DNA of 64,000 bases. Origin: an uncultured Actinomycetes bacterium (GTDB taxonomy: Bacteria > Actinomycetota > UBA4738 > HRBIN12). Every line of letters begins with the position of its first letter. Position 1 is the stretch's first letter. Positions 8,738-61,816 of this stretch are shown piece by piece. The stretch covers positions 195,537 to 259,536 of the forward strand of contig CAVZQM010000001.1 of assembly GCA_963777495.1 (NCBI GenBank), in the 5' to 3' direction. The position numbers and the translations under genes are program-made. The notes under the pieces are model-generated. The model was not told where the DNA came from. It saw nothing but the letters and a program-made list of their open reading frames with translations, and searched no databases.

Positions 8738-8792
8738 GAGGCATCACTCTAGACAACCGGGCGTCCGAGCCGGGAGCCGCGAGAGCGACGGG

Positions 8793-9737: not shown

Positions 9738-9859
9738 CGGTTCCTCCAGCCGGCTCTCGTTCGCCGTGGGTCGGGGCACTTCCGTGATCGCGACCGAGGG
9801 CTGGAGTCGCTCATCGCCGGACAACGTGCGGAGTGTCGCTCTCTAGCTTACGGCACGGC

Positions 9860-28668: not shown

Positions 28669-30060
28669 ATGCTCGATCGAGAGCTCGTCGAAGAGGTCCT
28701 CCGTGCGGCGCGTCGGCGCGGTGGTGCGTTCGCGGAGCTGTTCGTCGAGGAGAGACGTCGACGTCGATCCGTCTGGACGACGGCAAGGTCGAGGAGCTCA
28801 CGACCGGGCTCGACCGCGGCGCCGGCGTCCGCGTCTGCCGTGGGCACGTCGTACGGCTACGCGTACTCGAACCGCCTCGATCGCGACGCCCTGCTCGCCG
28901 CCGCCGAGGCCGCGAGCGCCGCGCTCCGCGAGGGCGAGGCCGGGCGACGTCGTCGATCTGCGCGCGATCGTCGGCTCGGTCGTGAACCCCGTCGAGCGTC
29001 CCGCGGAGTCGCTGCCCGGCCGCCGACAAGGTGGCGTGGGTCCGCGAGGCCGACGACGCGGCGCGTGTCGTTCGCCCGGAGGTTCGTCAGGTCATCGGGG
29101 TCTACGGCGACTCGCTCCAGCGCGTGCTGATCGCGACGTCGGACGGGCGGTGGGTCGAGGAGACGCGTCCGCGCATCCGGCTGGTCGCGCAGGTCGTCGC
29201 CGCGCGCGACGGGAACATCCAGACCGGGTTCCACGGGCCGGCGGCGCTGCAGCGGCACCGAGTTCGTCGACGCGCACCCGCCGCGGCGACGGCCGAGGTC
29301 GCGGCGCGGCGCGCCGTCACGATGCTCGACTCGATCCCGGCGCCGGCCGGGGAGATGACGGTCGTGCTCGCGCCCGGCATGGGCGGCGTGCTGTTCCACG
29401 AGGCCGTCGGCCATCCGCTCGAGTCCGACGCGATCGACAAGGAGGCCAGCGTGTACCGCGGGCGGATCGGAGAGCGGTGCGCGTCGGAGCTGATCGACGG
29501 CGTCGACGACGCGACGGTGCCGAACGCGTGGGGCTCGTTCTCGTTCGACGACGAGGGCACGCCGTCGCAGCGGACCGTCGCTGTTCGAGAAGGGCGTGCT
29601 GCAGGGCTTGCTCTACGACCGGCTGCACGCCGACGAAGGACGGCCAGTCGCCGACCGGCAACGGCCGCCGCCAGTCCTACGCGTCGCCGCCGATCCCGCG
29701 GATGACGAACACCTACATCCTGAACGGCACGTCGAAGGCCGACGACATCCTGTCGTCGACCGCGAACGGCGTGTTCGTCACGTCGCTCGGCGGCGGCCAG
29801 ACGAACCCGGCCACCGGCGACTTCGTGTTCGGCGTGCGCCGAGGCGTTCCTGATCGAGGACGGCGCGGTCGACGACGCCCGTCCGCGGCGCGAACCTGAT
29901 CGGCCGCGCGATCGAGGTCATGAGCGCGGTCGACGCGGTCGCCGACGACTTCGACACCTGGCAGGGCGTCTGCGGCAAGGACGGCCAGGCCGTGCCCGTG
30001 GGGAGCGGCTCGCCGACGCTCCGGATCTCGCGGCTCACGGTCGGAGGCACCGGTGCCTGA
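28669..30060 (+). CDS. tldD: TldD family metalloprotease (frameshifted)
   Basis: HEAVGHPLE (HExxxH) motif; conserved N-terminus MLDRELVEEVL…AELFVEER and C-terminus …PIPRMTNTYILNG…GDFVFGV…; at least three frame switches. Confidence 0.8.
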
Positions 30061-35020: not shown

Positions 35021-35502
35021 GACGCGGTGGAGTGTAGCGGGAGGTTCGAGCGCGCCCGTCGCACGCCGGACGCACGACGACCTGGCCTTTCGGCGGAACC
35101 GTATCCGACCTTTCGGTTTAGCCTTCCAGCGGATGCCCGTATCACCCGGGAAGGCTACGGTCATCGCCTGCGAATCGCGGTGCGCCGCGCCCGCGGAGCG
35201 CCACCGGAACGATCCAAGGAGGTCGTCATGCCAGGGTCAGGGTTCGCGCGAGAAGCGAGGCGACGTCCTGATCTCGATCTGCTGTTCGGGCCCGTCGAAG
35301 CCGCCGCCATCGAGAACGACGACGGCGTCGCGTCGGACGTCACCGTGCTCGACGGAGGTGGAGCTCATCGATCCGATCGGAGCTGCCGACGTGGAGAGAG
35401 GACGGATGAGCGAGCCAGCTCACGTGACGACGCGTCGGAAAGGCCATACACTCATGAACGCCCGCCGTCGATCCGAGGGCCACGGCAAGAGAGGGTCGCT
35501 TC

Positions 35503-36383
35503 ATGCCGGTCAGGAAAGCCGTCATCCCCGCGGCAGGTCTCGGGACGCGCTTCCTGCCGGCGACCAAGGCCCAGCAGAAGGCGATGCTCCCGGTCGTCGA
35601 CAAGCCCTCGATCCAGTACGTGGTCGAGGAGGCCGTGCGCGCCGGCCTGACCGACATCCTGGTCATCACCGGCCGCGGCAACCGCTCGCTCGAGGACCAC
35701 TTCGATCGATCGTTCGAGCTCGAGCACTTCCTGGAGTCCAAGGGCAAGTTCGACGAGCTCAAGGAGGTCCAAGAGATCAGCGACATGGCGACGATCCACT
35801 ACATCCGCCAGAAGGATCCGCTCGGTCTGGGGCACGCCGTGTCGGTGGCCGAGGAACACGTGAACGGCGAGCCGTTCGCCGTCTTGCTCGGTGACGACCT
35901 GATCCACCACTCCATGCCGCTCTTGCGCCGAGATGCTCCGCGTGCACGAGCGGTACGGACGCAGCGTCATCGCCGTCCAGGAGGTACGGCCCGAGGAGAT
36001 CCGCGTTCTACGGGTGCGTCGAGCCGGAGTTCGTCGAGGAGAACCTCGCGCGCGTGATGTCGATCGTCGAGAAGCCGGCCCCCGGCACCGAGCCGTCGAA
36101 CCTCGCGGCGATCGGCCGGTACGTGCTGACGCACGACATCTTCGACGCGCTGCGCGAGACCGAGCCGGGCGCGGGCGGCGAGATCCAGCTGACGGACGCG
36201 ATCAACGCGCTCGCGAAGGAGCAGGCGTTCTACGCGTACGCGTTCGATCACGGCCGGTACGACGTCGGCAACAAGCTCGACTACCTCAAGGCGACGGTCG
36301 AGTTCGCCCTCGAGCGCGACGACATCGGCGACGATTTCCGCCGGTACCTCCAGGACCTGCTGAAGGACGACCGGCTCCGCTGA
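35503..36383 (+). CDS. galU: UTP--glucose-1-phosphate uridylyltransferase (frameshifted)
   Basis: [20 protein letters not shown]…VDKP…; central …[15 protein letters not shown]… and C-terminal …SIVEKPAPG…GRYVL… segments in two other frames. Confidence 0.85.
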
Positions 36384-36426
36384 AGGTCCCGCCCGGTTCC
36401 GCGACACCTCTGAGTAGACTGCGGGC

Positions 36427-37692
36427 ATGGCCGAGCGTCGCCACGTCCACGATCACGACGACGTCGCCGGGCTCGTCTCCGTCGAGGACGCGCGCGCGAA
36501 CGTCCTGTCGCAGATCCATCCGCTCGCGCCGCTGCAGCTGCCGCTGACCGAGGCGTACGGGTGCGTGGTCGCCGAGGACACCGTCGCCGAGAAGGACCTG
36601 CCCGAGTTCGCGTCGTCGGCGATGGACGGGTTCGCGGTGCGCTCGTCCGACGTGGCCGGCGCCACCCCGTCGTCGCCCGATCGGAGCTGAAGATCGTGGG
36701 CAGCGCGCGGATCGGCCGCCGTCCCGATGCGGTCGTGGGCGGCGGCGAGGCCGTGCGCATCGCCACCGGCGCGCCGATCCCGGCGGGCGCCGACACCGTG
36801 GTGCCGATCGAGAACGCCGAGCCCGGAGGCGAGATGGCGACGATCTTCGACGGGCCGCCCGCAGGTCAGCACATCCGCCCGTCCGGCGAGGACGTGCGGG
36901 CCGGGCAGGTGCTGGTGCCGAGCGGGCAAACGGCTGGGCCCACCGGAGATGGGGCTGCTCGCCAACGCGGGCTTCCCCCATCCGCTCGTGCACCCGCGCC
37001 CGCGCGTCATCGTGCTCTCGACCGGCGACGAGCTGATCCCGCCGACCGAGACGCCCGAGTTCGGACAGGTGCGCGACTCGAACGCGTACATGATCTTCTC
37101 CGCGTTGCGTGACGTCGGCGCCCAGCCCGTCCTGGCCGGCATCGTGAAGGACGACGTGGATGCGCTGAAGGAGACCGTGCTGAGCTACCTGATCCAGGCC
37201 GACGCGTTCATCTCGTCGGGCGGCGTCTCCGTCGGCGAGCGCGACGTGGTCAAGGCGGCGTTCTTCCGCCGCGGCGAGGTCGACTTCTACAAGGTGGCGA
37301 TGCAGCCCGGCATGCCGCAGGGGTTCGGACACATCGAGGGCAAGCCGTACTTCGGCCTGCCGGGCAACCCGGTCAGCGTCTTCGTGAGCTTCGAGATCTT
37401 CGTCCGCCCCTCGATCCTCAAGATGATGGGACGCACGCAGCTGTTCCGCCCGGAGGTGACGGCCACGCTCGCCGAGGACGTCGCCGGCCCGAAGGGCAAG
37501 CTGCAGTTCGCCCGCGTGCGGCTCGAGCGCGGCAGCGACGGATGGATCGCGACGCCGACCGGTTCGCGCGGCTCGAACCTGATCTCGACCGTCGTGCGGG
37601 CGAACGGCCTCGCCATGGTGCCGGTCGGCACCGCGGTCGCGGAGGCCGGCTCCGAGGTCCGCGTCATGGTGTTCCGCTCCTCGGAGGACTGA
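36427..37692 (+). CDS. moeA: molybdopterin molybdotransferase (frameshifted)
   Basis: MoeA N-terminal domain, GGVSVGERD motif, GLPGNPVS motif; three ORFs in different frames. Confidence 0.85.
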
Positions 37693-47451: not shown

Positions 47452-48756
47452 ATGCTCGGCTCGATGAACGACGAACGCGTGTTGATCCGTGCCGGACGCC
47501 TCATCGACGTCGAGCGCGGGGAAGTGCTCACCGACCGCGTGATCGTCGTCGAGGGCGAACGCGTCGCCGACGTGCTGACCGAGTCACCGGCGGAGACGTC
47601 GTCGGCGACGATCGATCTCTCCGATCACACGGTGCTCCCGGGGTTGATGGACATGCATGCTCACATGGTCGGCGAGATGGAGACGGGGCTGGGTTACGCC
47701 GCCCTGGTGATGCGGACCCCGGCGCAGGAGGCCATGAGCGGCGTCCGGAACGCGCGTGCCACCGTCGAGGCAGGGTTCACGACCGTCCGCGACGTCGGGA
47801 CGTTCCGGGCATTCGTCGACTGCGCGCTGCGCGATGCGATCGACGCCGGCGACACGCCCGGGCCACGCATGATGTGCGCGGGGCCGTTCGTCACGGTGTC
47901 GGGCGGCGGCGGTGATGTGACCGGGCTCTCGCCCGATGTCGACGCCGTCGTGCCGATCGATCTCCGGTTCGGGGTCGCGAACTCCGTCGACGAGGTGCGC
48001 CAGCGTGTCCGGCGGATCCTCGGCGGTGGGGCGGACTTCATCAAGGTGATCGCGACCGGTGCGGTGCTCACCGAAGGAACCACACCGGGCGCGCCCGAGT
48101 TCACCGAGGACGAGATCCGCGCGGCCGTGGACGAAGCGGCGCTCTACGGCACGCATGTGGCCGCGCATGCGCACGGCGCCGAGGGGATCAAGCGCGCGGT
48201 GCGCGCCGGCGTTCGTTCGATCGAGCACGGCTCGTTGATGGACGACGAGTCGATCGAGCTCATGGCCTCGAACGGCACGTACCTGGTCGCCGACATCTAC
48301 TGCGGCGATTGGATCGCCGAGGAGGGCGCACGGGGTGGGTGGTCCGCCGATGTGATCCGGAAGAACGAAGAGACGACCGACGCCCAGCGCGAGGGCTTCG
48401 AGAAGTCCGTGAAGGCGGGCGTGACGATCGCCTACGGGACCGACAGCGGTGTGTATCCACACGCATGGGTCGGCAAACAGTTCGCGTACATGGTCCGGTA
48501 CGGCATGACGCCGATGGAGGCGATCCGCAGCGCCACGGTCGTCGCGGCCGAGTTGATGGGCTGGTCGGAACGGGTGGGCGCGCTTGCGCCGGGACGGTTC
48601 GCGGACCTGGTGGCGGTGACCGGCGATCCGCTCGAGGACATCTCGCTGCTCGAGTCGATCCCGTTCGTGATGAAGGGCGGCGCGGTCGTCAAGCGCGACC
48701 CGGCCTCAGCTGCGGGCTGGCCAGGATTGTTGACAGTCAACCAAACGACGCCATAG
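47452..48756 (+). CDS. amidohydrolase family protein (metal-dependent hydrolase)
   Basis: Intact 434-aa ORF; HxH metal motif (DMHAHMVGE); further His/Asp ligands typical of imidazolonepropionase/Xaa-Pro-dipeptidase-like amidohydrolases. Confidence 0.8.
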   Translation: MLGSMNDERVLIRAGRLIDVERGEVLTDRVIVVEGERVADVLTESPAETSSATIDLSDHTVLPGLMDMHAHMVGEMETGLGYAALVMRTPAQEAMSGVRNARATVEAGFTTVRDVGTFRAFVDCALRDAIDAGDTPGPRMMCAGPFVTVSGGGGDVTGLSPDVDAVVPIDLRFGVANSVDEVRQRVRRILGGGADFIKVIATGAVLTEGTTPGAPEFTEDEIRAAVDEAALYGTHVAAHAHGAEGIKRAVRAGVRSIEHGSLMDDESIELMASNGTYLVADIYCGDWIAEEGARGGWSADVIRKNEETTDAQREGFEKSVKAGVTIAYGTDSGVYPHAWVGKQFAYMVRYGMTPMEAIRSATVVAAELMGWSERVGALAPGRFADLVAVTGDPLEDISLLESIPFVMKGGAVVKRDPASAAGWPGLLTVNQTTP

Positions 48757-48791
48757 CCTCGCCCGAACGAGCGAGGAGCGAGGGTCGGACG

Positions 48792-50386
48792 ATGAGCTAC
48801 GACGCGATCGTCGTGGGCGGCGGACACAACGGGCTGGTGGCGGGCTTCTACCTCGCCCGGGCCGGGCTGCGCACCCTGATCCTGGAGCGTCGCGACATCG
48901 TCGGCGGCGCCTGCGTCACCGAGGAGTTCGCCCCGGGCTATCCGGGCGTCGACCGGGCGCCTACGTCTTGTCGATGCTCCGCGAGTCGATCTGGCGTGAC
49001 ATGCGGCTGGTGCAACGCGGCATCCAGGTCGACGCGGCCGGTCCCACGCTGAACGTCTTCCCCGACGGCGCGCACTACTACCTGGCCGACGACATGGACC
49101 TGACGCTCGCCGAGACGCGCCGATTCTCCACGCGCGACGCCGACGCCCTGGTCCGGCTCGAGGAGGACCTCGGCCGGCTGGCCGGTGCCGTGGTCCCGTA
49201 CTTCGAGCGGACCGCGCCGGACCCTCGCCTGCGGAGCGCGCACGACCTGCGCGAGCTGGCGCACGCCGGACGCCTGGCGCTCAAGCATCGTCGCGACCTG
49301 CTGGACCTGGCGTTCCTGTTCACCACGTCGGCCACGCAGTTCCTGGAGGAGCGGTTCGAGTCCGAGCACGTGATGGCCGCGATCGGGTGGCACGCGATCA
49401 ACGACAGCGTCGCCGGTCCCTCGACGCCCGGGACGGCGTTCGTGTTGTTGCACGATCACGCGAGCGAGGAGACGGGCGGCGGACCGCGCGCCTGGGGGTT
49501 CGTCCGCAGCGGGATGGGCCGGCTCACCGAGGTGATGGCCGATGCGGCGCGCGAGGCGGGGGCCGAGATCCGGACCGACGCGGAGGTCGAGCGCATCCTC
49601 ACCGTCGACGGCCGCGCGACGGGCGTCGCGCTCGCGAGCGGCGAAGAGATCCGCGCGTCGCGCGTGCTGTCCAACGCCGACCCCAAGCGGACGTTCTTGG
49701 GGCTGGTCGACGAACGCGATCTGCCCGACGCGTTCCTGGGATCGATCCGCGCGTACCGCTGCATGGGGACGAGCATGAAGATCAACCTCGCCGTGTCCGA
49801 GCTCCCGATGGTTCGCGGGCTCCCCGAGGGCGGCGTGCAGCCGTACCACACGGGCATCATGGAGATGAACCCGTTCATCCCCGAGATGGACATGCAGCAG
49901 GCACAGGCGCGGGCCGGCATCGCCGCCGATCCGGCGCACGTCGAGCTTTGCTTCCCGACGGTGCACGACCCGTCGCTCGCGCCGGAGGGCAAGCACGTGA
50001 TCACGATCGACGTGAACTCGCAGCCGTACGACCTGCGACACGACGATTGGGACGACCATCAAGGAGGCGCGGGCCGACGCCGCGATCGCGCAGATCGCGG
50101 AGGTGTTCCCGAAGCTCCCGGATCTGATCGAGCATCGACAGGTGCTGAGCCCGCTGGACCTCGAGCGGCTGATCGGGCTCACGGGAGGCCACGCCTTGCA
50201 CGGCGACATGTCGCCCGATCAACTCCTGTTCATGCGGCCGGTGCGCGGGTACGCGGACTACCGGACGCCGGTCCGGGGCTCTACCTCTGCGGCGCGGGCA
50301 CGCATCCCGGGGGTGGCGTCACCGGCGCCAACGGCCGCAACGCCGCGCGCGAGGTCCTGCGCGACGCGCACAAGAAGCTCGCGTAA
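48792..50386 (+). CDS. phytoene-desaturase-family (CrtI-like) FAD/NAD(P)-dependent oxidoreductase (frameshifted)
   Basis: N-terminal DAIVVGGGHNGL Rossmann motif; C-terminal …GLYLCGAGTHPGGGVTGANGRNAA…; frame switches near 48950, 50040 and 50275. Confidence 0.75.
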
Positions 50387-50403
50387 CTCACGAGCGCGAG
50401 TCG

Positions 50404-50932
50404 TCAGGCGGGCGCGCGGATCACGCGCGGCGCTCGCGGGAAGAACGACCTGCCACCACGCTCCTGCTTGCGGACGAGCTCGTTCGCGAAGATCCACTCG
50501 TGCTTGGGCAGCGGCTCGAGGCGCTCCACCTCGAAGAACGACTGCGGGCCCCCGCTCGTCGTCTCGTCGTCCTCGTCGTCCGGGTCGACATCGGGTATCG
50601 GTCTCGGCGGCGACCCGCCGTTCCTCGATCCACGTCGACGGCAGGAGGTCCGGCAGGTCGGGAGCCTCGGGTGCCACCCGCCGCGAGGAACGTGGCACGC
50701 CAGGTGACGGCCGGCACGGCGTCCTCGCCCGAGATCATCAGGAGGACGTCCATGCCGGCGGCCGCCACGTCGAGGTCGCCCGGGCTTCCGGCCGGGATGA
50801 CGACGCGGCCACTCCGGGCGCACACCGCGAGCGCGGCCTCCACGTGGCGCTGTGGGAGGCCGGCGAGCAGGACCCGCGCCTCGTGTTCCTCGTCATCCAT
50901 CCGACCCCCGATCATCCATGCGGGAGCGGCCA
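50404..50932 (-). CDS. hypothetical protein (frameshifted)
   Basis: Coding segments in three frames (MAAPAWMIGG…; …PEAPDLPDLLPSTWIEERR…; …SFFEVERLEPLPKHEWIFANELVRKQ…); no family recognised. Confidence 0.3.
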
Positions 50933-51054
50933 TCGTAGCGAAGAGGCTCTTGACCGGCGCCGAGGCATCCGTAGATTGTCGACAGTTCACAGCAGGAGGA
51001 CGGTCGACGCGTGCCGACGGTGCCGCGAGCCACCTGCGGAAGGGGGAAGCCGGG

Positions 51055-52558
51055 ATGGGTCGTGACGACGATTCGGCCGTGTACGCCGACGGGGAGGGCA
51101 GGCGCGGAGAGATCGACCGCCGCAGGTTCATCCGGATGGGGGTGGTCGGCACCGCGATGGCGAGCGCGATGCTGATGGACCGCGACCGCGAGGCGGGAGC
51201 GGCGGCGATGAAGCGCTCGACCGTCACCGGGGCTCCCCGCGCCGCCGGGCTGGTCGAAGCCGGGCCCGAGCTGGCGCTGCCGCCCGGGTTCAGCTACACG
51301 ACGTTCGGTGCGTTCGGATCGGCCATGACCGACGGGTTCATCACCCCGCCGATCCACGACGGCATGGCGGCGTTCGACATGGGTGACGGGACGCTGCGCA
51401 TCGTGCGCAACCACGAGCTCGGTGAGGGGAACGACGTCCCCGCCGGCACCGTGATCGGCGATCCGAAGACCGCGTACGACAAGAAGGCGCCGGGCGGAAC
51501 CGTCACGCTCGTGGTCGACGCCGCGACCGGGGAGCTGCGGTCCGACTGGATCAGCCTGAACGGGACCGACACGAACTGCGCCGGGATGCCGACGCCGTGG
51601 GGTACCTGGCTGACGTGTGAGGAGACGGTGGCCGGCGTGGACTCCGGACGGCTGAAGCCGCACGGCTACGTGTTCGAGGTGGATCCGTCCGCCGACGCGC
51701 CGACGAAGAGCAAGCCCTACAAGGCGATGGGGCGGTTCCTGCACGAGGCCGGCGCGGTCGATCCCGACACCGGCGTCGTCTACATGACCGAGGACGAGGG
51801 CCCGGACGGGTTCTACCGGTACCTCCCGAAGGATCCGGGCAACCTCGCGGCCGGCGGCACGCTCCAGATGCTCGCCGTCAAGGGCCAGCCGAGTACAACA
51901 CGATCGTCGGTCAGACGGTCGGCGACGTGCTGCCGGCGAACTGGGTCACGATCGACAACCCGGATCCCGGCCAACGCCGAAGACAACGCGTCCGCGGTGT
52001 TCCAGCAGGGTCGCGCCAAGGGCGCCGCGAAGTTCCTCGGAGGCGAGGGCGCGACGTTCCGCGACGGTGGCGTCGTCTTCGGCTCGTCCGACGGCGGCGA
52101 CGTCGGGACTCGGTCAGGTCTGGCAGTACACGCCGACGACCAACGTCGGGAAGAAGAACGAGGAGGGCGAGCTGGTCCTGTTGTTCGAGTCGACGGGTCC
52201 CGGCGTGCTCGACGGGCCGGACAACATGTGCACGAGTCCCGGCGGAGCGATCGTCATCGCCGAGGACGGCAACCTCAAGAGCAACTTCGTGCGTGCGTTG
52301 CTGCCCGACGGGAGCCTGATCACGGTCGCCGAGAACCTGGTGGGCGTGCAATGGCACTACATCGAGGCGTCGGGCAAGCTCTACGACCCGACGGTCCCCG
52401 ACGACGGTGCTTCCGCGGGCGACGGGATCGGTCACGCGGAGTTCGCAGGCCCCACGTTCAGCCCGGACGGGAAGTTCCTGTTCGTGAACATCCAGGTTCC
52501 CGGCATCACGTGCGCGATCACCGGCCCGTGGGCGAGCCTGGGCCTGCTGAGTCGATGA
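51055..52558 (+). CDS. phoX: PhoX-family (DUF839) phosphatase with Tat signal (frameshifted)
   Basis: RBS GAAGGGGGAAG; twin-arginine motif DRRRFIRMG; conserved …GYVFEVDP… and …DGPDNMCTSPGGAIVIAEDG… blocks; C-terminal part in a second frame. Confidence 0.7.
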
Positions 52559-53901
52559 CGGAGGACGTGCCCCGGATCGTCGCGACGCCGCCGGGCCCGA
52601 AGACACGGGAGATCCTCGCTCGTCAGGAGCGGGTGCTGTACCCGGGCCTCGCGCACGGTCTGGGGCCGTTCGTCATCAACCGCAAGTCCGGCTGGGAGAT
52701 CGAGGACGTCGACGGCAACGTCTACCTCGACTTCATCAGCGCGATGGCGTCGGTGCCGTTCGGCGCTGCGCGTCCCGACGTCGTGGAGCCGGTGATCGAG
52801 GCGCTCCGTCGCTACGGCAACGAGGACACGCACTACTACTCCAACGAGTACGTGCTGCCGCTCGCCGAGGAGCTGCTGCGCGTCGCGCCGGACGGACTCG
52901 ACGCGCGTCGACATCGCGCTGAACGGCACGGAGGCGGTCGAGACCGCCATCCGGTTCATGCGTCGCGCGACCGGTCGCCCGATCGTGATCGGGTTCATGG
53001 GCGGCTACCACGGCGAGACCGGCACCGCCGGGCGCGATCGGCGCGGAGACGTCCGATCTCTCGTTCGGCTACCGCGCGCTGATGTCCGGATTCGCCCACG
53101 TGCCCGTACCCGAACCCGTACCGAACCCCGTTCACCGCTCGTCCCGGCGGCACGGGCGACGGCACCGTCGACTACATCCGCGATCATCTCCTGCATCACG
53201 CGATCGATCCCCGCGAGGTCGCCGGCTTCGTGATCGAGCCGGTGCTCGGCAGCGGTGGCTGCGTGGCCCCTCCCGACGCGTTCTGGGCGGCGCTCGTCGA
53301 GCTCTGCCGGGAGTTCGACTTCCTCCTCTGCGCCGACGAGGTGAAGACCGGGTTCGGACGGACCGGTCACCTGTTCGCGGTCGAACGATGGGGCGTGCGG
53401 CCCGACCTGATGGCGCTCGGCAAGGCGATGGGCGGAGGCGTGATGCCGATCGGGGCGGTGCTCGGCACCGAGCGCGCCATGGGCTTCGACGATGTCTCGA
53501 CGGGCTCGACGTGGTCGTGGCTCCCGGCGGCCTGTGTGGCGGCGATCGAGACGCTCCGCGTCTTCCGCGAGGAGCCGCTCCTCGAGCACGTGCGCGAGCT
53601 GGACGCGGCTGCCCGGCGCGCGCTCGCGCCGCTGGCGGAGCGCTACGGAGCCATCGGGGACGTGCGCGTCACCGGTTGCTTCATCGCCATCGAGTTCGTG
53701 AAGGACCGTGTGACCAAGGAGCGGGACCTCGAGCTGATGGAACGGGTGGCATGGGGATGCATCCGGCGCGGGCTGCTCGCCGACGCGAGCACGACGTCGT
53801 TCAATCTCCAGCCGTCGCTCGTCACACCTGTCGACGTCCTGGAGCAGGGGATCGCGATCGTCGACGACGCGATCGCGGAAGCCGTCGGTTCGCCGGGATG
53901 A
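52555..53901 (+). CDS. class-III (PLP) aminotransferase (frameshifted)
   Basis: ATG overlaps the phoX TGA (ATGA); DEVKTGFGRTG and PLP-lysine motif LGKAMGGG; three frames. Confidence 0.8.
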
Positions 53902-53919: not shown

Positions 53920-55068
53920 TCAGATGCCCACGGTGAACCGCGCGAGCACGGCCGCGTCGATCGCGCGTTCGTCCAGCTCCACCCCGAGCCCGGTGCCCTC
54001 GAGGGGTCCGACCGTCCCGTCGGCGTCCATCTCGAGCGGCGTCGTCACGCCCCACTCGAATTCCTCGGACGGCACCGCTCGTTCGAAGAAGCTGGTCCGG
54101 CAGAACGCGAGCATCACGTGGAGGTTCGCGGCCTGCACCGGCGTCTGGCCGTAGCTGGTCACCTCCACGTCCAGCCCGAACGCCTCCGCGACATCGAACA
54201 CCCGGAGCGCGGACGTGATGCCTCCCGCGAACGTCACGTCGAACCGCATCGCCGACCACGGCGGGTCTCGCATGATCTCCGTCATCAGACGGGGATCCCA
54301 GATCGCGTCGCCGGCCGGGATGATCGGGACGCGCCCGATCCGCACGAGCCGGCGGTACCCCTCCAGGTCGAGGTCGGGCAGCGGCGCCTCGAACCACCGG
54401 ACGCCGAGGTCTCCGAGCTCGCTCGCCATGCGTTCGGCGGCGTCGCGCTCCAAGCACCCTTCGGCGTCGTAGATCAACGCCATGTCGTCGTCCGCGCCGC
54501 GAGCGGCGCGGACGGCCTCGAGGTCGCGGTCCGGATCGCCCCAGGCGTGGATCTTCGCGGCGGTGTACCCCTCGGCGCGGCGGCGGACGACCTCGTCCGC
54601 ATAGGCCTCCGGGCGCCCGAGCGTGGGGAGCGAGGCATACGCCGGGAGTCGCTCCACGCCGCGGTGCTCGGGAGCGATCAGCCGGTGCAGCGGCAGGCCG
54701 GCGCGGTGGGCGGCCAGGTCCCACAGGGCGATGTCGATCGCGGAGCGGACACCCGGCATGTCGGGTGCGGTCCCGTGGTCACGGAGCTCGTCCCAGATGG
54801 CCCGCCGCTCCCGGGGGTCCCGGCCGATCACGCGGGGAGCGATCGTCCGGAGCGTCTCCAGCGGTGCCAGGTCGAACGCGCCGTAGCTGTCCGAATCGAA
54901 CTGGCCGAGGCCGGTGACCCCGTCGCCGTCTGTGACGCGCACCAGGGTGCTGGTCGTGAATGGAGCCGGAAGGTGGCTCGTGTACGCGTGACGGGGCAGG
55001 TCTGGACCGAGCGCCAGCACCTCGATGCGCTCGACCGGCGATCCGGGCTCCTCGGCTGCGTTTGTCAA
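53920..55068 (-). CDS. mandelate racemase / muconate lactonizing enzyme family (enolase superfamily) protein
   Basis: Intact 382-aa ORF (TTG start); capping domain plus TIM-barrel with KxK and metal-ligand Asp/Glu residues (…AAKIHAWG…ALIYDAEG…). Confidence 0.85.
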   Translation of the reverse strand: MTNAAEEPGSPVERIEVLALGPDLPRHAYTSHLPAPFTTSTLVRVTDGDGVTGLGQFDSDSYGAFDLAPLETLRTIAPRVIGRDPRERRAIWDELRDHGTAPDMPGVRSAIDIALWDLAAHRAGLPLHRLIAPEHRGVERLPAYASLPTLGRPEAYADEVVRRRAEGYTAAKIHAWGDPDRDLEAVRAARGADDDMALIYDAEGCLERDAAERMASELGDLGVRWFEAPLPDLDLEGYRRLVRIGRVPIIPAGDAIWDPRLMTEIMRDPPWSAMRFDVTFAGGITSALRVFDVAEAFGLDVEVTSYGQTPVQAANLHVMLAFCRTSFFERAVPSEEFEWGVTTPLEMDADGTVGPLEGTGLGVELDERAIDAAVLARFTVGI

Positions 55069-55168: not shown

Positions 55169-55393
55169 CTGGAACGGCGGCCCACCCCCAACGGTGGGCA
55201 CCATCTGCACGGCGACATGTCGCCGGACCAACCGCTGTTCCTGCGGCCGGTGCGCGGCGACGCGGACTACCGGACGCCGGTGTCGCGGTTGTATCTGTGG
55301 GGCGCGGGCACGCACCCGGGCGGGGGCGTGACCGGCGCCGACGGGCGCAACGGCGCGCGTGAGCTGCTCCGCGACGTCAGAGGGAGACGTTGA
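55169..55393 (+). pseudogene. 3' remnant of a CrtI-like oxidoreductase paralog
   Basis: Encodes …GGHHLHGDMSPDQPLFLRPVRGDADYRTPVSRLYLWGAGTHPGGGVTGADGRNGARELLRD…, about 70% identical to the C-terminus of the 48792-50386 gene; no N-terminal Rossmann domain; stop overlaps the SMP-30 ATG. Confidence 0.5.
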
Positions 55394-56241
55394 TGCTCGA
55401 CCGGTTCGACGAACTCGCCGAAGGGTTGAACCATCCGGAGGGCGTCACGTGGAACCCGTTCGACGGGTTGGTCTACGCGGGTGGAGAAGGAGGCGAGCTG
55501 TACGCGATCACGCTCGATGGCGAGGTCGAGCAACGCGGCGCCACCGGTGGTTCGATGCTGGGGCTCGCGGTGGACGGCGCGGGGCGCGTGTACGCCTGCG
55601 ATGCCGGCAACGGCGAGATCGTGCGGCTGGACCCGGCCTCGGGTGTGGTCGAGATCTACGGACGTGGCGTCGGGGGCGACGATCTCGACACGCCGAACGT
55701 CGCGGCGTTCGGTCCCGACGGGATGCTCTACGTGACGTGTTCCGGAGAGGACGATCGCCCCGAGATCGTCCGGATCGTGCCCGGTGCCGACGGCGATCGG
55801 CGGACCGAGCGCTGGAGCGCCGACGTGCCGCGGTACCCGAACGGGTGCGTGGTGACGACAGACGGTTCCGCGCTCATCGTCGTCGAGGCGAAGGCGGAGC
55901 GGGTCGTTCGCGTGCCGATCCTGCCGGACGGGGTTGCCGGCACCCCCGAGGTCATCGCCGACCTCCCCGACACGGATCCCGACGGGCTTGCGATCGCCGC
56001 GGACGGCGCGTACTGGGTGACGTTGTATCGTCCGGACGGCTTGTTGCGGATCGCGCCCGACGGCACCGTGGCTACGGTCGTCGACGACCACCTCGCGTCG
56101 ACGTTCGACGCGCCGACGAACATCGCCTGGGTCGGCCCGGCACTCGACCGAGTCGTCGTCGCGAACGTCGGCGACCGCTTCCTGTCGATCGGCGACGTCG
56201 GGGTGACCGGACTACCGCTCCATCATCCGGAGGTGCCGTGA
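55393..56241 (+). CDS. SMP-30/gluconolactonase/LRE family protein
   Basis: Intact ORF; six-bladed beta-propeller lactonase signatures (…EGVTWNP…, …PNGCVVTTDG…, …DGLAIAADG…). Confidence 0.85.
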   Translation: MLDRFDELAEGLNHPEGVTWNPFDGLVYAGGEGGELYAITLDGEVEQRGATGGSMLGLAVDGAGRVYACDAGNGEIVRLDPASGVVEIYGRGVGGDDLDTPNVAAFGPDGMLYVTCSGEDDRPEIVRIVPGADGDRRTERWSADVPRYPNGCVVTTDGSALIVVEAKAERVVRVPILPDGVAGTPEVIADLPDTDPDGLAIAADGAYWVTLYRPDGLLRIAPDGTVATVVDDHLASTFDAPTNIAWVGPALDRVVVANVGDRFLSIGDVGVTGLPLHHPEVP

Positions 56242-57060
56242 TGGCCCGCTACACCGACCGGAACGTGATCGTGACCGGAGGGGCTCAAGGCATCGGGCGC
56301 GGCATCGTCGAGGCGTTCCTCGCCGAGGGGGCGCACCGTCTTCGCCGCCGACATCCGCGCCGACGGGCTCGAGGGTATGCGCGCGGCGCAGGCCGAGCCC
56401 GATCGCGTGCGCACCCACGCCGTCGATCTCTCCGACTTCGAGGCCGCAAAGGCGATGGCGCGCGCTGCGATCGAGGAGCTCGGACACATCCACGTGCTGG
56501 TCAACTGCGCCGGGGTCATGCCCGGCGGCCCGCTGATCGACGTGTCGCGGGAGACGTTCGACCTGACGTTCGCGGTCAACGCCCGCGCGCCCATGGCCAC
56601 GATGCAGGTCGTGGCCGCCCACATGGCCGAACACGGAGGCGGCGCCATCGTGAACATCGCGTCGGCGAACGCGTTCAAGAACGAATCGCCCGAGGCGCCG
56701 TACAACGCGTCCAAGGCGGCGCTGGTCGCGCTCACCAAGGCGGCGGCCCACGAGTGGGGCCACCTCAACATCCGCGCCAACTGCGTCGCGCCGGGGCAGA
56801 CCACGACCCCGGAGGAAGAGATCGAGATCGCGTCCGATCCGGACGAGGCGCGTCTCCAACGCGACTACCTGATGCGGATCCCGCTGCGGCGGGCTGGGGC
56901 GCCGCACGATCAAGCAGCCGCGGTGTTGTTCCTGGCGTCCGACGAGGCCGCATGGATCAGTGGACAGACGTTGATCGTCGACGGCGGCGAGCTCGGCGGC
57001 GGCGATTGGTACGACCCGGCCGACGCGCCGCCCATCCCCGACGAGGGGCAGTCCTCGTGA
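56241..57060 (+). CDS. SDR family oxidoreductase (one frameshift)
   Basis: ATG overlaps the SMP-30 TGA (TGATG); TGGAQGIGRG cofactor motif, NASK…YNASKAA (YxxxK) catalytic motif; shift near 56330. Confidence 0.8.
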
Positions 57061-57073
57061 GCGCGGGACACCG

Positions 57074-58328
57074 ATGAGCGCAGCCACCGCTCCGGCTCCG
57101 GTCCTGGAGCTCGCCACGTTCCGCGTCGACGACGTCGTGGAGGGCCGAGCGACGTCGTGGCTGAACGGACGGCTGGAGCTCGACGTCGGAGCGCTCGCAG
57201 ACGCGGCGTCGGAGCCGGCGCTCGCCGACGTGCGGATCGACGTCGTCCGTCCGGGGGACCCGGTGCGGATCGCCAACGTCCTGGACGCGGTCCTGCCGGA
57301 CGTGAAGGCCGACGATCCGGACCGAACGTTCCCCGGTGCGCTCGGCTCGCTGACGATCGCCGGTCGCGGACGGACGAACCGGCTCGACGGCGTCGCCGTC
57401 CTCTCCGTCTGCGACTGGCTCGCCGCGGGCTACACGCAACCCGACGAGTTTCCGGACGCGCTCGTCGACATGGCGGGTCCGGGCGCGGAGGTGACGCGGT
57501 GGGGACGCACGATCGACGTCGTGGTCCGGTGCGTCCCGTCGGCCGGCGCGCCCATCGGGGACGTCGACCGTGCCGTGCGACGCGCGTCGCTCCGTGTCGC
57601 GCGCGATCTGGCCGCGGCGACGATCGATCGTGAGGCGAGCGAGGTCGCGACGCTGGAGCGTCCGCGCGCCGGCGTCGATCCCGCGCTCCCATCGGTCGGC
57701 GCGATCCTCCAGGTGGCGTCGGAAGGCCCGCTGACCGACACGTTCCTCTACGGCCGCGCGGTCGGCGGGATCGTGCCGACGCTGCTCGACGCGAACGAGG
57801 TGCTCGACGGGGCGCTCACGAACGGCGCCTACGACTGGGCGTCGGTTCGCAACGTGACCGCGAACTATCAGGATTCGTCGCTCGTCCGCACGCTCCTGGC
57901 CGGTCACGGCGAACGGCTGGCGGTTCGCCGGCTTGATCCTGGCGCTCGGCTACCTGGATACGCGCGTTCGAGAAGCAGCGGTCGGCCATGCTCTCCGCCC
58001 GCCTCGCCAGGTCGTTGGGCGCCGACGGCGTCGTGTGCACGACGTTCTCGTCGGGCAACTCGCACACCGACACGATGCTCACGGTGCGCGCGTGCGAATC
58101 GCTCGGCATCCGCACCACGGCCATCATCAGCGAGACGAACGGCGGGCTCACGGATCACGTCCCTGAGGCGGACGCCATCGTGAGCGTCGGCAACGAGGAC
58201 GAACTGATCGAACCCGTGGACGCCGGAGCGCGTGGTGGGTGCCGAGCGAGCCCGTGCGCGGCGGGCGAGCCGGTCCCGCTCTGGGCGTACCTGGGCGCGA
58301 CCGTGGCAGACGGGCGACATGGCGCTGA
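57074..58328 (+). CDS. grdE: glycine/sarcosine/betaine reductase component B alpha/beta proprotein (GrdE/PrdA family; frameshifted; 3' end approximate)
   Basis: DVVRPGDPVRIANVLDAVLPDVK region parallels ELARPGESVRIIPVKDVIEPRVK of clostridial GrdE; internal Cys-containing segment VVCTTFSSGNSH in a second frame; a +1-frame TGA at 58326-58328 is taken as the end. Confidence 0.65.
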
Positions 58329-58341
58329 CGGCGGTGCCGGC

Positions 58342-59635
58342 ATGACGGTCGTCCATTACCTCAACCAGTTCTTCGCCGGGCTGGGCGGCGAAGAGGCCGC
58401 GAGCCAGGAGCCGGTGCGGATCGAGGGCGCGGCCGGTCCCGGCCGGGGACTCGTGGCGGCCGGGCTCGAGATCGACGTGACGCTCGCGTGCGGCGACGAC
58501 CGGTTCGGTGAGCACGAGGCGGAGTCGCTCGCGCGTCTGCTGAGCGTGGCTGGACGAGATCCGGCCCGACGTCCTGGTGTGCGGTCCGTCGTTCGGATCC
58601 GGCCGTTACGGCTACGCGTGCGGTTCGCTCGCGCGCGAGGCGGGGAGGCGCGGCATCCCGGTCGTGTCCGGCATGACGCCCGACAGCCCCGGCGTGCTGG
58701 CGGCCGAAGGCGCCGCGTACATCGTCCCGACGGGGCCGAACGTCGCGAGCATGCGCACCGCGCTCCCCGTGATCGCGAGCCTCGCCGGCCGGCTGGCGAC
58801 GGGCGAGCCGGTCGGATCACCCGAGGACGAGGGATACCTGCCGCGCGGTCTCCGCACGAACGTTCACGCCGACAGGACGGGCGCGGAGCGCGCGCTCGAC
58901 CTGCTGCTGGCCAAGCTCGGCGGCGACGTCCGCTCCGAGGTCGTCCCGAGCGGCGACCGCGTGGCACCGCCTGCCGCGGTCACCGGATGTGGCGACGGCG
59001 ACGCCTCGCGCTGGTCACCGAGGCCGGCTGCGTCCCGCAGGGGAACCCCGACCGGCTGCCGACGCGGCACGCCAACGTGTGGCTGCGGTATCCGATCGAC
59101 GGCGTGGCGACGTTCGCCGCGGGCGCCTACGAGTCGGTGCACGCCGGGTTCGACACCACGGCCGCGAACGCCGACCCGAACCGGCTGGTGCCGCTCGACG
59201 CGGTGCGCGAGCTTGAGGCGGGAGGGCCGGATCGGTTCGTTGCACGACCGGTTCTACACGACGACCGGTGTCGACACGCCGGTCGCCACGTCGGCCAAGT
59301 TCGGGCGCGAGATCGCGGAGGAACTGCGGGATGCCGGGGTCCAGGCCGTCATCCTCACCGGAACCTGAGGCACAGGCACGCGTTGCGGGGCAACGCTTGC
59401 GAAGGAGATAGAGCGGATGGGGATCGCGACGGTGTTCGTCACGGCGCTCCCGACCATCGCGCAGATGGTCGGGGCGAACCGGGTGCTGCGTGGGGTGTCC
59501 ATCACCCATCCCACCGGGGACCCGTCCCTGTCCGTGGGTGATGAGCGCGCCCTTCGCCGCCGCGTCGTGGAGCGCGCCCTCGAGCTGCTCGCCACGGATG
59601 TCGGCCCGGGCACCGTGTGGGAGGTGCCGGCATGA
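58342..59635 (+). CDS. grdB: glycine/sarcosine/betaine reductase selenoprotein B (in-frame TGA = Sec at 59366-59368; internal frameshifts)
   Basis: GRDB-family N-terminus MTVVHYLNQFFAGLGGEE. The ORF track splits it into two ORFs, but TGA 59366-59368 is in frame with the downstream 72-aa ORF (59417-59635). The joined sequence reads …AVILTGT-U-GTGTRCGATLAKEIERMGIATVFVTALPTIAQMVGANRV…, where GrdB-type proteins carry U. A SECIS-like hairpin lies 12 nt downstream. Confidence 0.7.
59380..59396 (+). other. SECIS-like hairpin downstream of the grdB UGA
   Basis: GCGTTG-CGGGG-CAACGC: 6-bp perfect stem with G-rich apical loop, starting 12 nt after TGA 59366-59368. Confidence 0.4.
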
Positions 59636-60949
59636 CGGGCCGCGACGTCGCGATCACCGGCGCGTCGTTGACGTTGCAGCACGTTCCCGACCTGGTCCGG
59701 TACGGCTCGAAGCCGCGGCGCGAGCACGAGCGGCTCCCGCAGGTCGGTGACGCGCTGCGGAGCTTCAGCGACGCCGTCAGCTATCCGCCGAACCAGGTGT
59801 TCATCGGGAACGCGGACCCAGGCATCCTGCGGGAGCTGCCGCGTCCCTGGTGGCGAGATGCCCCTCCCGGGGACCCGCGCGGCGCCTTCGGCGACATCCT
59901 GGATCAGGCGACGTTCTACGAGCTCCTCGCCGAGCTCGACCAGTTCGAGCTCGTGCGCCTGAAGGAGGAGCCGCGTCCCGGCGAGCTGCCCGCTGTTCGA
60001 CGGCGCGGACGTCGTGGGCGCGTTCGCGGCGGCCCACGAGGCCGATGAGTCGCTGTCGGCGCACGTGCTCCTGGAGAACCTGGCGTGCAAGGCCGGCGCG
60101 GTGCACGCGACGCGGCACCTGCTGGCGGCGACCGGCGTCGACCCGGCGTCGATCCCGTACGTGATCGGCGCGGGGGAGGAGGCGATCGGCGACCGGTATC
60201 AGCGCGGCGGAGGCAACCTCGGCAAGGCGGTCGCCGAGGCGGCGGGACTCACCGAGGCGAGCGGCTGCGACATCAAGGCGTTCTGTGCGGCGCCGATCCA
60301 CGCGCTGGTGGTCGCCGGCGCGCTTGGTGTCGGCGGGCGTGTACGACCGGGTGGCGGTCGTCGCCGGCGGCGCGCTGGCCAAGCTCGGCATGAAGTTCGA
60401 GGGTGCGCTCGAGCACGACGATGCCGATCCTGGAGGACGTGCTCGCGAGCATGGCGATCCTCGTCGAGGCGGCGGCGAGATCGTGCGGGCCGGTGATCCG
60501 GATGGACGCGGTCGGGCGTCACCGCGTGGCGGCGGGAGTCGTCCCAGCAGGCGTTGCTGGAGGACATCGTCGGCGCGCCGCTCGCGGCGATGGGGCGAAC
60601 GATCGCCGACGTCGACGTCTACGCCACCGAGCTCCACAACCCGGAGATCACGGAGTCGTCGGGCGGAGGCGACGTCCCCGACCGGAACTACCGCATGCTC
60701 GCTGGGCTCGGCGTGGTGCGCGGCGATCTCACCAAGGAGGAGCTCCTCCCGTTCGTCCGTTCGCACGGGCTGCCGGGCTTCTCACCGACGCAGGGGCACA
60801 TCGCGTCGGCGATCCCGTGGCTTCCGCACGCGTTGCGGGCGTTCGAACGCGGCGATCTGCACACGACGATGTTGATGGCGAAGGGCAGCCTGTTCCTCGG
60901 CCGGATGACGCGGCTCTGGGACGGAGCTTCGATCACGTTGGAGGGATAG
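59632..60949 (+). CDS. grdC: glycine reductase complex component C-like protein (GrdC/GrdD family; frameshifted)
   Basis: ATG overlaps the grdB stop (ATGA); N-terminus …TLQHVPD…SFSDAVSYPPNQVFIGN… parallels GrdC; thiolase/KAS-like C-terminal part (…GHIASAIPWLPHA…) in two further frames. At 439 aa it may be a truncated GrdC or a GrdC/GrdD fusion. Confidence 0.6.
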
Positions 60950-61309
60950 ATGGCGACGGAAGCGACCGTGGAGACGTTCACCGAGCTGGTGAAGGAAGGG
61001 CACGTCCTGCTCGACGTCTGGGGACCGGACTGCGCCCCGTGTATGGCGATGATGCCGGCCGTCGAGGCCCTAGAGGACAAGTACGAGGGGCGCATCACGC
61101 TGCTCAAGCTGAACGCGCCGGAGAACCGACAGGTGTGCCGGGACATGCGCGTCGCCGGGCTTCCCACGTACATCACGCTCCGCGACGGCGGCGAGGTCGA
61201 ACGGGTTACCGGCAACGGCGCCACGATCGCCGACATCGAGGCCGCGATCGAGCGGCTCCTGGCCGGCGCACCGGTGACCGGGCTCCCGGTGCCGGAGCAC
61301 CTGCGGTAA
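60950..61309 (+). CDS. trxA: thioredoxin (CxxC = CAPC), grd-cluster associated
   Basis: Intact 119-aa ORF; RBS TGGAGGGA; WGPDCAPC active site; follows the grdC stop directly. Confidence 0.8.
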   Translation: MATEATVETFTELVKEGHVLLDVWGPDCAPCMAMMPAVEALEDKYEGRITLLKLNAPENRQVCRDMRVAGLPTYITLRDGGEVERVTGNGATIADIEAAIERLLAGAPVTGLPVPEHLR

Positions 61310-61357
61310 GGCCGGCAGCATCCTGCGATCTGAGTGAGGGAGGTGAGGACGGACGAG

Positions 61358-61816
61358 ATGGAACTCAAGGGCAAGAAGGTGATCGCGCTCGGCGAGCGAG
61401 ACAGCGTCCCCGGCGAAGCCATCGCCGCGGTGGCGCGGTCGGCGGGCGCCGAGGTGATCGAGACGCGCACGGAATGCTTCGTCTGAACCGCTTCCGGCGC
61501 CATGGATCCAGAGAACCAGGGGTTGATCAAGCGCATCGCCGACGAGCTCGGGACCACCGATCTCGTCGTGATCCTCGGAGCGGCCGACGCCGAAGCGGTC
61601 GAGGTCGCCGCGGAGACGGTGCGTGAAGGCGATCCCGCGTACGTGGGTCCGTTGGCCGGGGTCCAGTTGGGCCTCCCTGTGTGGCACATCTTCGAGGACG
61701 AAGTGAAAGACCAGGCCGATCCTGCGGTCTACGAGGAGCAGGTCGGGTTCTTCGAGCTGTCCTTCGACACCGAGAGCGTGAAGGAAGCGATGAAGCGGGC
61801 TCGGGGGGAGACGTGA
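61358..61816 (+). CDS. grdA: glycine/sarcosine/betaine reductase complex selenoprotein A (in-frame TGA = Sec at 61484-61486)
   Basis: RBS GAGGGAGGTGAGGA. Translation reads [54 protein letters not shown]…GDPAYVGPLAGVQLGLPVWHIFEDEVK…, closely matching clostridial GrdA (TECFVUTSAGAMD…; AGPLAGVQLGL). Without readthrough only a 42-aa peptide would result. Confidence 0.85.

Follow-up and report, generated by a model that had tools for sequence, protein, structure and literature searches.

Within a 64-kb stretch of contig CAVZQM010000001.1 (64,000 nucleotides; hereafter the window, meaning the whole stretch of DNA that was analysed), we identified an in-frame TGA at 59366-59368 (+) that very probably encodes selenocysteine (Sec) and is accompanied by a recoding hairpin; the call draws on comparison with related genomes. 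All coordinates below are window positions on the + strand unless marked (-). The codon lies in a gene of the selenoprotein-B family (grdB/F/H-like; 58342-59635), whose product is predicted to be a single selenoprotein B of about 429 amino acids (aa) and not two proteins of 340 and 72 aa, and the gene appears to belong to a grdE-like/selenoprotein-B/grdC-like/trxA/grdA operon (57074-61816) of an uncultured soil actinobacterium. We hold this explanation as a whole, in which a Sec codon, a single selenoprotein B and a Grd-type operon are combined with artefactual insertions in the sequence, with high confidence. A Sec-encoding TGA with a selenocysteine insertion sequence (SECIS) in a GrdB-family gene is textbook, and a family model, an Rfam family and an NCBI product name already exist (a Cys homologue, P0022, bears the NCBI family product name). 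The window selenoprotein B belongs to an atypical, unstudied branch of this known family.

The in-frame TGA as a probable selenocysteine codon

A reading of the window made from its letters alone (hereafter the sequence-only reading) had proposed read-through of this TGA in a GrdB-type gene, on open reading frames (ORFs) of 263 aa (58577-59368) and 72 aa (59417-59635) that it placed in one frame with 16 sense codons between them. Both ORFs are indeed listed and share a frame. Translation of 58577-59638 gives QAVILTGT*GTGTRCGATLAKEIERMGIATV, in which the TGA is followed by 16 sense codons before the ATG at 59417; the same translation, QAVILTGT*GTGTRCGATLAKEIERMGIATVFVTALP, contains a single TGA ahead of those codons and the start of the second ORF. 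The proposed read-through is borne out by the position of the TGA at the Sec column of the family (U341, ILTGT-U-GTGTRCG) and by the 3-periodic variation of the sequence behind it, which is that of translated DNA.

A TGA stands at the aligned position in all 83 of 83 GrdB-family copies from 80 loci of species-representative genomes, as well as in L001, a metagenome contig (ENA ERZ25039494 contig_35016) with a 96% identical gene in the same gene order. The 80 loci include Actinomycetota, among them metagenome-assembled genomes (MAGs) of Thermoleophilia/Gaiellales, whose proteins are 62-77% identical to that of the window, and also Firmicutes, Chloroflexi, Desulfobaccales and a spirochaete, at 45-55% identity. 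Among the best 120 database homologues, about 115 have been called as genes of 337-356 aa, which span 79% of the query and stop at the TGA column, and five are full length with Cys at that column. These Cys homologues are single proteins of 426-431 aa, and in loci L082-L087 the codon at the Sec column is TGC or TGT. Alternation of Sec and Cys at one column is the classical signature of a selenoprotein.

The sequence downstream of the TGA behaves as part of the same protein. Across the 16 codons that follow it, entropy at codon positions 1, 2 and 3 is 0.44, 0.18 and 1.12, and only 7 of 84 relatives have the ATG at 59417 with which the 72-aa ORF would begin; given this start-codon distribution and the codon periodicity, the C-terminal piece is therefore not an independent gene. 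The alignment to the family model TIGR01918 runs uninterrupted across the TGA, and we count a second conserved Sec-TGA, in the grdA gene of the same operon, as support for Sec decoding. An alternative genetic code, with TGA read as Trp or Gly, was considered and rejected, since the gene itself and its neighbours terminate in TGA and the Cys homologues align to the column.

What speaks against Sec decoding is the absence of its machinery from the immediate surroundings: none of selA, selB, selC and selD was seen in the 64-kb window, ARAGORN returned only a tRNA-Ala over the window, and a Pfam scan of 30 ORFs, which are part of the ORFs present, found no Sec-machinery gene. From the features of the sequence, we infer that decoding would be SelB-dependent and that SelB would bind the hairpin.

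Reconstruction of the gene and the origin of its frameshifts

The gene as sequenced contains four frameshifting insertions, which the sequence-only reading had missed. Deletion of single bases at 58545, 58985, 59001 and 59220 (frameshifts 1 to 4, each placed by alignment with L001 and by reconstruction) yields a 1290-nt ORF of 429 codons including Sec341, in which the TGA is codon 341. The repaired protein is identical at 329 of 340 positions to P0001, its relative on L001, where the N-terminal part of the gene is an intact 340-aa ORF. The true N-terminus (MTVVHYLNQFF) lies at 58342, in another frame and upstream of the insertion at 58545; the ATG there overlaps the stop codon of the grdE-like gene (ATGA), and the same ATGA overlap links the gene's own stop codon with the start of the grdC-like gene. 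The claim that the joined ORFs form one continuous GRDB sequence therefore needs qualifying: it stands across the TGA and fails in the middle of the 263-aa ORF. That ORF is chimeric, following the GrdB frame only in its first ~136 and last ~48 residues (two profile matches), because the one-base insertions at 58985, 59001 and 59220 put its middle out of frame. The product with the four inserted bases removed, and only that product, scores 425.9 bits on TIGR01918 (glycine/betaine/sarcosine/D-proline family reductase selenoprotein B; cutoff 65.45; profile positions 2-431 of 431) and 372.4 bits on Pfam GRDB (PF07355; cutoff 22). A sequence search of the PDB with the selenoprotein B returned no relative.

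The evidence favours assembly insertion errors as the very probable source of the four frameshifts in the selenoprotein-B gene, and equally of some twelve others spread over grdE, grdC and the SDR gene. The alternative that survives best, and one that we consider improbable, is a genuine pseudogene cluster in which the insertions are real and the TGA and SECIS are undecoded relics. It draws on the four frameshifts themselves and on their distribution, and the latter also counts against an artefact: 15 insertions fall in the 2.6 kb of grdE-grdB-grdC (57917-60541), none in 53.1-56.3 kb and none in trxA or grdA, and the first 18 kb of the window is clean, with long intact ORFs (799 aa and 625 aa). 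A local cause is needed for such uneven spread, and we therefore keep a small share of our belief for genuine inactivation. Several observations stand against decay. All four of the events in the selenoprotein-B gene are +1 insertions, with no deletion or multi-base event. If four frameshifts (~15 in the operon) had arisen by decay, substitutions would be expected to accompany them, and the lack of any window-derived amino-acid change speaks for an artefact: polarised with four outgroup proteins, all 11 of the 11 differences from L001 in GrdB residues 1-340 are derived in L001 and none in the window. The pN/pS ratio between window and L001 is 0.35, and the TGA and hairpin are untouched. The two contigs carry one-base indels of their own, which interrupt different genes in each: in L001 grdB, grdC and the SDR gene are intact and grdE and the aminotransferases are split. 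Unrelated window genes (MoeA, NTP_transferase) are split too. Over 15.7 kb the contigs differ by 137 indels and 428 mismatches, a ratio far above that of natural coding divergence.

Sequence quality is uneven along the window. Broken or partial genes or indels also occur at 56333, 59992-60541, 61914, 35458-36380, 36418-37689, 28986-29702 and 53030-53103; NTP_transferase is split over two frames (35458-36054 and 35895-36380), MoeA lacks its N-domain, PmbA/TldD is partial, and only the C-terminal half of the aminotransferase is found at 53083. Two approaches to the frameshifts were set aside. A frame plot of GC content at third codon positions (GC3) was too noisy for counting them and served as a hint only, and a model in which all indels are insertion errors was abandoned when dropping the indel columns left ORFs unrestored, grdC having a deletion and the 48-53 kb region being truly divergent. 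We also observed that 48395-53100, which covers the end of an amidohydrolase, an amine-oxidase-like gene, a PhoX-like gene and the start of an aminotransferase, is far more divergent from L001 1-4700, with 45-79 mismatches per kb and as many as 56 indels, in contigs that are otherwise 98-99% identical. Possible causes are a variable region, assemblies that mix strains and a very poor L001 consensus.

The probable recoding hairpin

The sequence-only reading had noted a hairpin behind the TGA, and it is indeed present at 59380-59396 (GCGTTGC/GGG/GCAACGC), a 17-nt core element 11 nt after the TGA that can be drawn as 7 bp with a GGG loop or as 6 bp with a CGGGG loop. Its proposed role as a bacterial SECIS gained support from covariation and from a match to Rfam SECIS_4 (RF01990) that abuts the TGA (59369-59406) and spans the full model (positions 1-38 of 38; 33.2 bits, E 3.4e-6 over 201 nt). 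The published bacterial SECIS (bSECIS) model calls for an apical loop of 3-9 nt, an upper stem of 4-16 bp, a G in the first two loop positions, a UGA-to-loop distance of 16-37 nt and a minimum free energy of at most -7.5 kcal/mol (PMC13188914 Fig. 2). The window hairpin lies within every one of these limits, with a GGG (or C-GGG-G) loop, a 7-bp stem, 18 nt from UGA to loop and a folding energy of -9.0 kcal/mol alone. With a 3-bp lower stem (59376-59378 with 59398-59400) RNAfold gives -13.3 kcal/mol; this extension is not conserved and was not counted, since 76 of 81 sequences leave pair 19-39 open.

On its own, the hairpin stays within chance in DNA of 70% GC. RNAfold, which the sequence-only reading had put forward as a check, does fold it, and the 71-nt stretch around it has a z-score of only -0.57, so that no excess over chance is seen; among the 1220 TGA triplets of the window, 5.6% precede a perfect stem of 6 bp or more that fits the bSECIS loop and spacing, and 1.3% one of 7 bp or more. 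The SECIS_4 score, too, falls short of the gathering score of 38. These points weigh against a recoding element, as do two more: codons of a highly conserved peptide run through the hairpin, whose conservation is therefore partly coding constraint, and the recent Cys variants L082 and L083 still keep it. Since the hairpin by itself is unremarkable, the case rests on comparison with other genomes, and there homology, covariation and the SECIS_4 match together raise it far above chance.

The comparison bears directly on the suggestion that encoding the conserved peptide T-R-C-G-A-T yields the hairpin as a by-product and that any read-through depends on something else. This is in keeping with a stem made of codons for invariant or nearly invariant residues, with the two Cys variants just mentioned and with the chance-level frequency of such stems. 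We nevertheless judge it very unlikely. The 7-bp core helix has 95.6% of its cells paired across an alignment of 84 sequences, and three of its pairs have changed on both sides. Pair 59383-59393 connects an Arg codon, at its synonymous third base, with a Thr/Val/Ala codon three positions downstream, at its first base, and covaries perfectly in 81 distinct homologues (UA in 53, CG in 28, none of them mismatched or wobble-paired). Pair 59380-59396 alternates among GC (52), UA (18), CG (2) and AU (1), following changes of a Leu/Met/Val codon. The covariation score of 0.27 was reached by none of 500 shuffles (shuffles 0.16), and sliding the partners gave at most 0.09. In the deeper Cys clade (L085, L087; CGTGSRSGA) this coupling is broken and the helix is gone (CGC...ATC), with a folding energy of +2.0 kcal/mol against a mean of -8.2. 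The agreement with the bSECIS rules and with SECIS_4 also tells against a by-product.

Two Desulfobaccales MAGs carry a second selenoprotein-B paralogue (L069:1335 and L079:594) with the motif U-GS-G-TR-S, which holds no Cys; its hairpin shows a compensatory double change from T-A to A-T (CGTAGC...GCTACG), a further difficulty for the by-product explanation.

The SECIS_4 score can be set against those of other loci. At the TGA of Firmicutes grdB genes the model scores 52-66 bits, and the RF01990 consensus is the Firmicutes grdB sequence after the UGA; none of the five actinobacterial loci scanned (0/5) reaches the threshold. We conclude that the window hairpin is a divergent, sub-threshold element of the SECIS_4 type.

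The rival readings of a stop codon or a Cys-codon error

Two outcomes that would tell against read-through had been named at the outset, namely homologues that uniformly stop at this column with the 72-aa part as a separate gene, and a TGA produced by substitution error from a codon for Cys or another residue; the rarity of the ATG among relatives and the invariance of the TGA in all copies are the opposite of both. A true stop followed by a second gene (59417-59635) matches what automatic callers annotate in relatives (340 aa + 72 aa in L001) and the ATG in the window, and is hardly credible beside the 16 intervening codons conserved as protein with third-position variation, the single-chain Cys homologues, a family model that crosses the TGA and the SECIS behind it. 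A misread Cys codon (TGC or TGT), which an error-prone contig and the Cys homologues in the clade might invite, can be dismissed as next to impossible, as the independent relative L001 and every one of the 52 other actinobacterial-clade loci share the TGA, the errors in the grd region of the window are insertions and not substitutions, and grdA in the same operon carries its expected TGA.

Organization of the operon and its neighbours

Upstream of the selenoprotein-B gene lies a grdE-like gene for a predicted partner subunit of component B (57074-58345; Pfam Gly_reductase 182.8 bits), with six one-base insertions at 57917, 57963, 58216, 58247, 58259 and 58304. On NCBIfam GrdG its product scores 164 bits against a cutoff of 780. 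In place of the canonical GrdE SGNC(242)VSAC, whose Cys242 turns into the pyruvoyl group of the processed proprotein (PMC10838667), it has NGAYDWASV, so that both self-cleavage cysteines are missing, and this type of loss extends to all aligned partners of the actinobacterial clade (the grdE-like genes of loci L002-L052). By analogy, the pattern suggests that the GrdE-like partner of the clade may be an unprocessed, non-pyruvoyl subunit like GrdI or FarE.

Downstream, a grdC-like gene for the beta subunit of component C (59632-60949) is broken by five insertions and one deletion; its repaired product of 437 aa scores 518.9 bits on NF040746 (cutoff 450). An intact thioredoxin gene, trxA (60950-61309; Pfam Thioredoxin 61.9 bits, NCBIfam TrxA 85.6 bits), and grdA, for selenoprotein A (61358-61816; NF040748 200.8 bits, cutoff 130), complete the set. 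The second in-frame TGA of the operon, at 61484-61486 in grdA (ECFV-U-TASGAMD; CxxU motif C-F-V-U at 61475-61486), splits that gene into ORFs of 42 aa and 104 aa and is conserved in 73 grdA copies among the loci fetched. Downstream, the grdA TGA is followed by no match to any SECIS family in Rfam.

One locus pairs a Cys selenoprotein-B homologue with a grdA that keeps its Sec-TGA (L085/L086; GCA_040904315.1, JBBDTR010000006.1). The deeper Cys clade to which it belongs, together with L087 (a 2-kb contig without grdA), has the motif C-GT-G-SR-S, with no cysteine past the active-site Cys. To judge from the sequences, L085/L086 looks like a natural replacement of Sec by Cys in one subunit only.

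A search by tblastn for grdD, which encodes the alpha subunit of component C, the one with the acetyl-thioester cysteine, found none in the window or in 60 clade loci, where only 6-10 kb flanks were covered and the gene could sit elsewhere in the genome; grdD adjoins grdC in 16 of 28 non-actinobacterial loci. Scans with Rfam found no glycine riboswitch in the window or in five clade loci, and found it in the four Firmicutes loci scanned.

Directly upstream of grdE are genes for an SGL (SMP-30/gluconolactonase-like) protein and an SDR (55390-57060), with overlapping stop and start codons, which are probably co-transcribed with grdE. An enolase-superfamily (MR_MLE) gene at 53920-55068 (-) stands beside them in divergent orientation. 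Of 36 clade loci, 16 have SGL and SDR homologues close to the grd genes. More broadly, SGL lactonase-like, SDR and class-III aminotransferase genes, a GntR/FCD regulator and an ABC binding protein recur near grd in 13-16 of 36 clade loci, compared with 0-1 of 18 others.

Possible substrate class and proposed mechanism

The name grdB, which the sequence-only reading had used and which denotes the glycine-specific gene, did not hold, because only the generic model TIGR01918 was passed. The repaired protein scores 392.8 against a cutoff of 602.2 on the GrdB model (TIGR01917), 419.2 against 800 on GrdF (NF040794) and 377.3 against 775 on GrdH (NF040795), reaching none of them. Signature motifs of GrdB have been given as GPxF[NF]AGRYG, AHGGxD[QTAP], RV[IL]PxD and TxGNxTxV (PMC9751293). 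At the corresponding sites the window protein has GPSFGSGRYG, VHAGFDT, RLVPLD and TTGVDTPV, and thus fails the GrdB signature; the GrdF motifs IHGGYDR and TTGTGT are likewise absent from it. A UxxCxxC motif starting at the Sec has been treated as required in selenoprotein B (PMC6778437, PMC13188914). The window has U-GT-G-TR-C and not this canonical form, a point on which the sequence-only reading needs correction. The same motif is found in 54 of 54 actinobacterial-clade copies and also in Chloroflexi, Desulfobaccales and spirochaete copies; Firmicutes copies have U-GT-C-TR-C.

On this evidence the enzyme would resemble Grd-type selenoenzymes and should not be named a glycine reductase. By analogy with GrdI and FarE, its substrate is probably not glycine, because the partner lacks the pyruvoyl-forming cysteine, as those two do. 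A substrate that does not form a Schiff base may be the better guess, on what amounts to an even call. The further step, that the soil-actinobacterial UxxGxxC clade, comprising at least 52 species-level MAGs of Actinomycetota, Thermoleophilia, Gaiellales, might constitute a separate new substrate class of Grd-type selenoenzymes, is one that we advance tentatively and regard as rather doubtful. The clade traits that can be cited for it are GxxC after the Sec, a non-pyruvoyl partner, no adjacent GrdD, no riboswitch and the recurrent neighbours. Were this so, the enzyme would reduce some X-CH2-COO(-) compound other than glycine with no Schiff base involved, and the path leading from carboxymethyl-GrdA to product might differ as well.

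The general scheme of the family involves selenoprotein B, a GrdE-type partner, GrdA, thioredoxin and component C (PMC13188914, PMC10838667). If the window operon follows it, selenoprotein B and its GrdE-type partner would bind the substrate; the Sec nucleophile would attack the alpha-carbon of the substrate, take up the carboxymethyl group and pass it to the Sec of GrdA; and thioredoxin would re-reduce the system, with component C releasing the acetyl unit.

Grd-type reductases are seen as belonging to anaerobes that ferment amino acids. The observations made here point to a Sec-dependent Grd-type version in many uncultured soil Actinomycetota, with active-site and partner features that misfit the glycine, sarcosine and betaine enzymes. 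Literature searches on Gaiellales and Thermoleophilia turned up nothing relevant on a glycine or betaine reductase, and this version would be missed by published motif filters (PMC9751293) and by the Rfam SECIS_4 threshold. Most database relatives of the clade are stored as truncations of ~340 aa. Annotating the TGA as Sec would give one 429-aa selenoprotein B instead of a truncated protein and a 72-aa orphan, and the contig needs polishing before gene calls in 57-61 kb are trusted. Identification of the substrate would widen the known chemistry of this selenoenzyme family.

Other features of the window

Two observations far from the grd genes are recorded here. The Rfam ASdes sRNA is matched at 9343-9410 with 48 bits (gathering score 40), antisense to an FA_desaturase_2 ORF at 8796-9842 (-). 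An ASdes RNA antisense to a desaturase is an arrangement known from mycobacteria, and it fits an actinobacterial source for the window. In the 799-aa ORF at 6347-8743 (-), an APH-type phosphotransferase domain is joined to a complete class-III aminotransferase domain.

Comparison with known systems

In its recoding element, the window invites comparison with two known hairpins. The minimal SECIS of Escherichia coli fdhF, reportedly delimited by Liu et al. in 1998, is a 17-nt hairpin lying 11 nt after the UGA, and the window hairpin has equal geometry. Like SECIS_4, the window element starts right after the UGA and has a 6-7-bp CGYUGC/GCARCG stem with a GGN loop; it differs in a 5' flank of GGC (Gly) for UGU (Cys) and in a loop of GGG for GGU.

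As a protein, it resembles the GrdB/GrdF/GrdH family in its end-to-end profile match, in the Sec-TGA at the active-site column and in the GrdE-family gene immediately upstream, and the resemblance to the GrdB/GrdF/GrdH complexes extends to the other operon members, grdC, trxA and a Sec-containing grdA. It differs from them in having UxxGxxC, in that no adjacent grdD was found and in that no glycine riboswitch was found. A second comparison is with GrdH/GrdI and FarB/FarE. FarE and GrdI lack the self-cleavage/pyruvoyl cysteines and are not proproteins, and FarB deviates in the CxxC part of the motif (PMC10838667). The GrdE-like partner in the window shares with these systems the loss of both pyruvoyl-forming cysteines. 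The scores separate the window proteins from them (FarE 111 against 675, GrdH 377 against 775), and, unlike those systems, the window protein keeps the last Cys of the motif and stands in a different gene neighbourhood.

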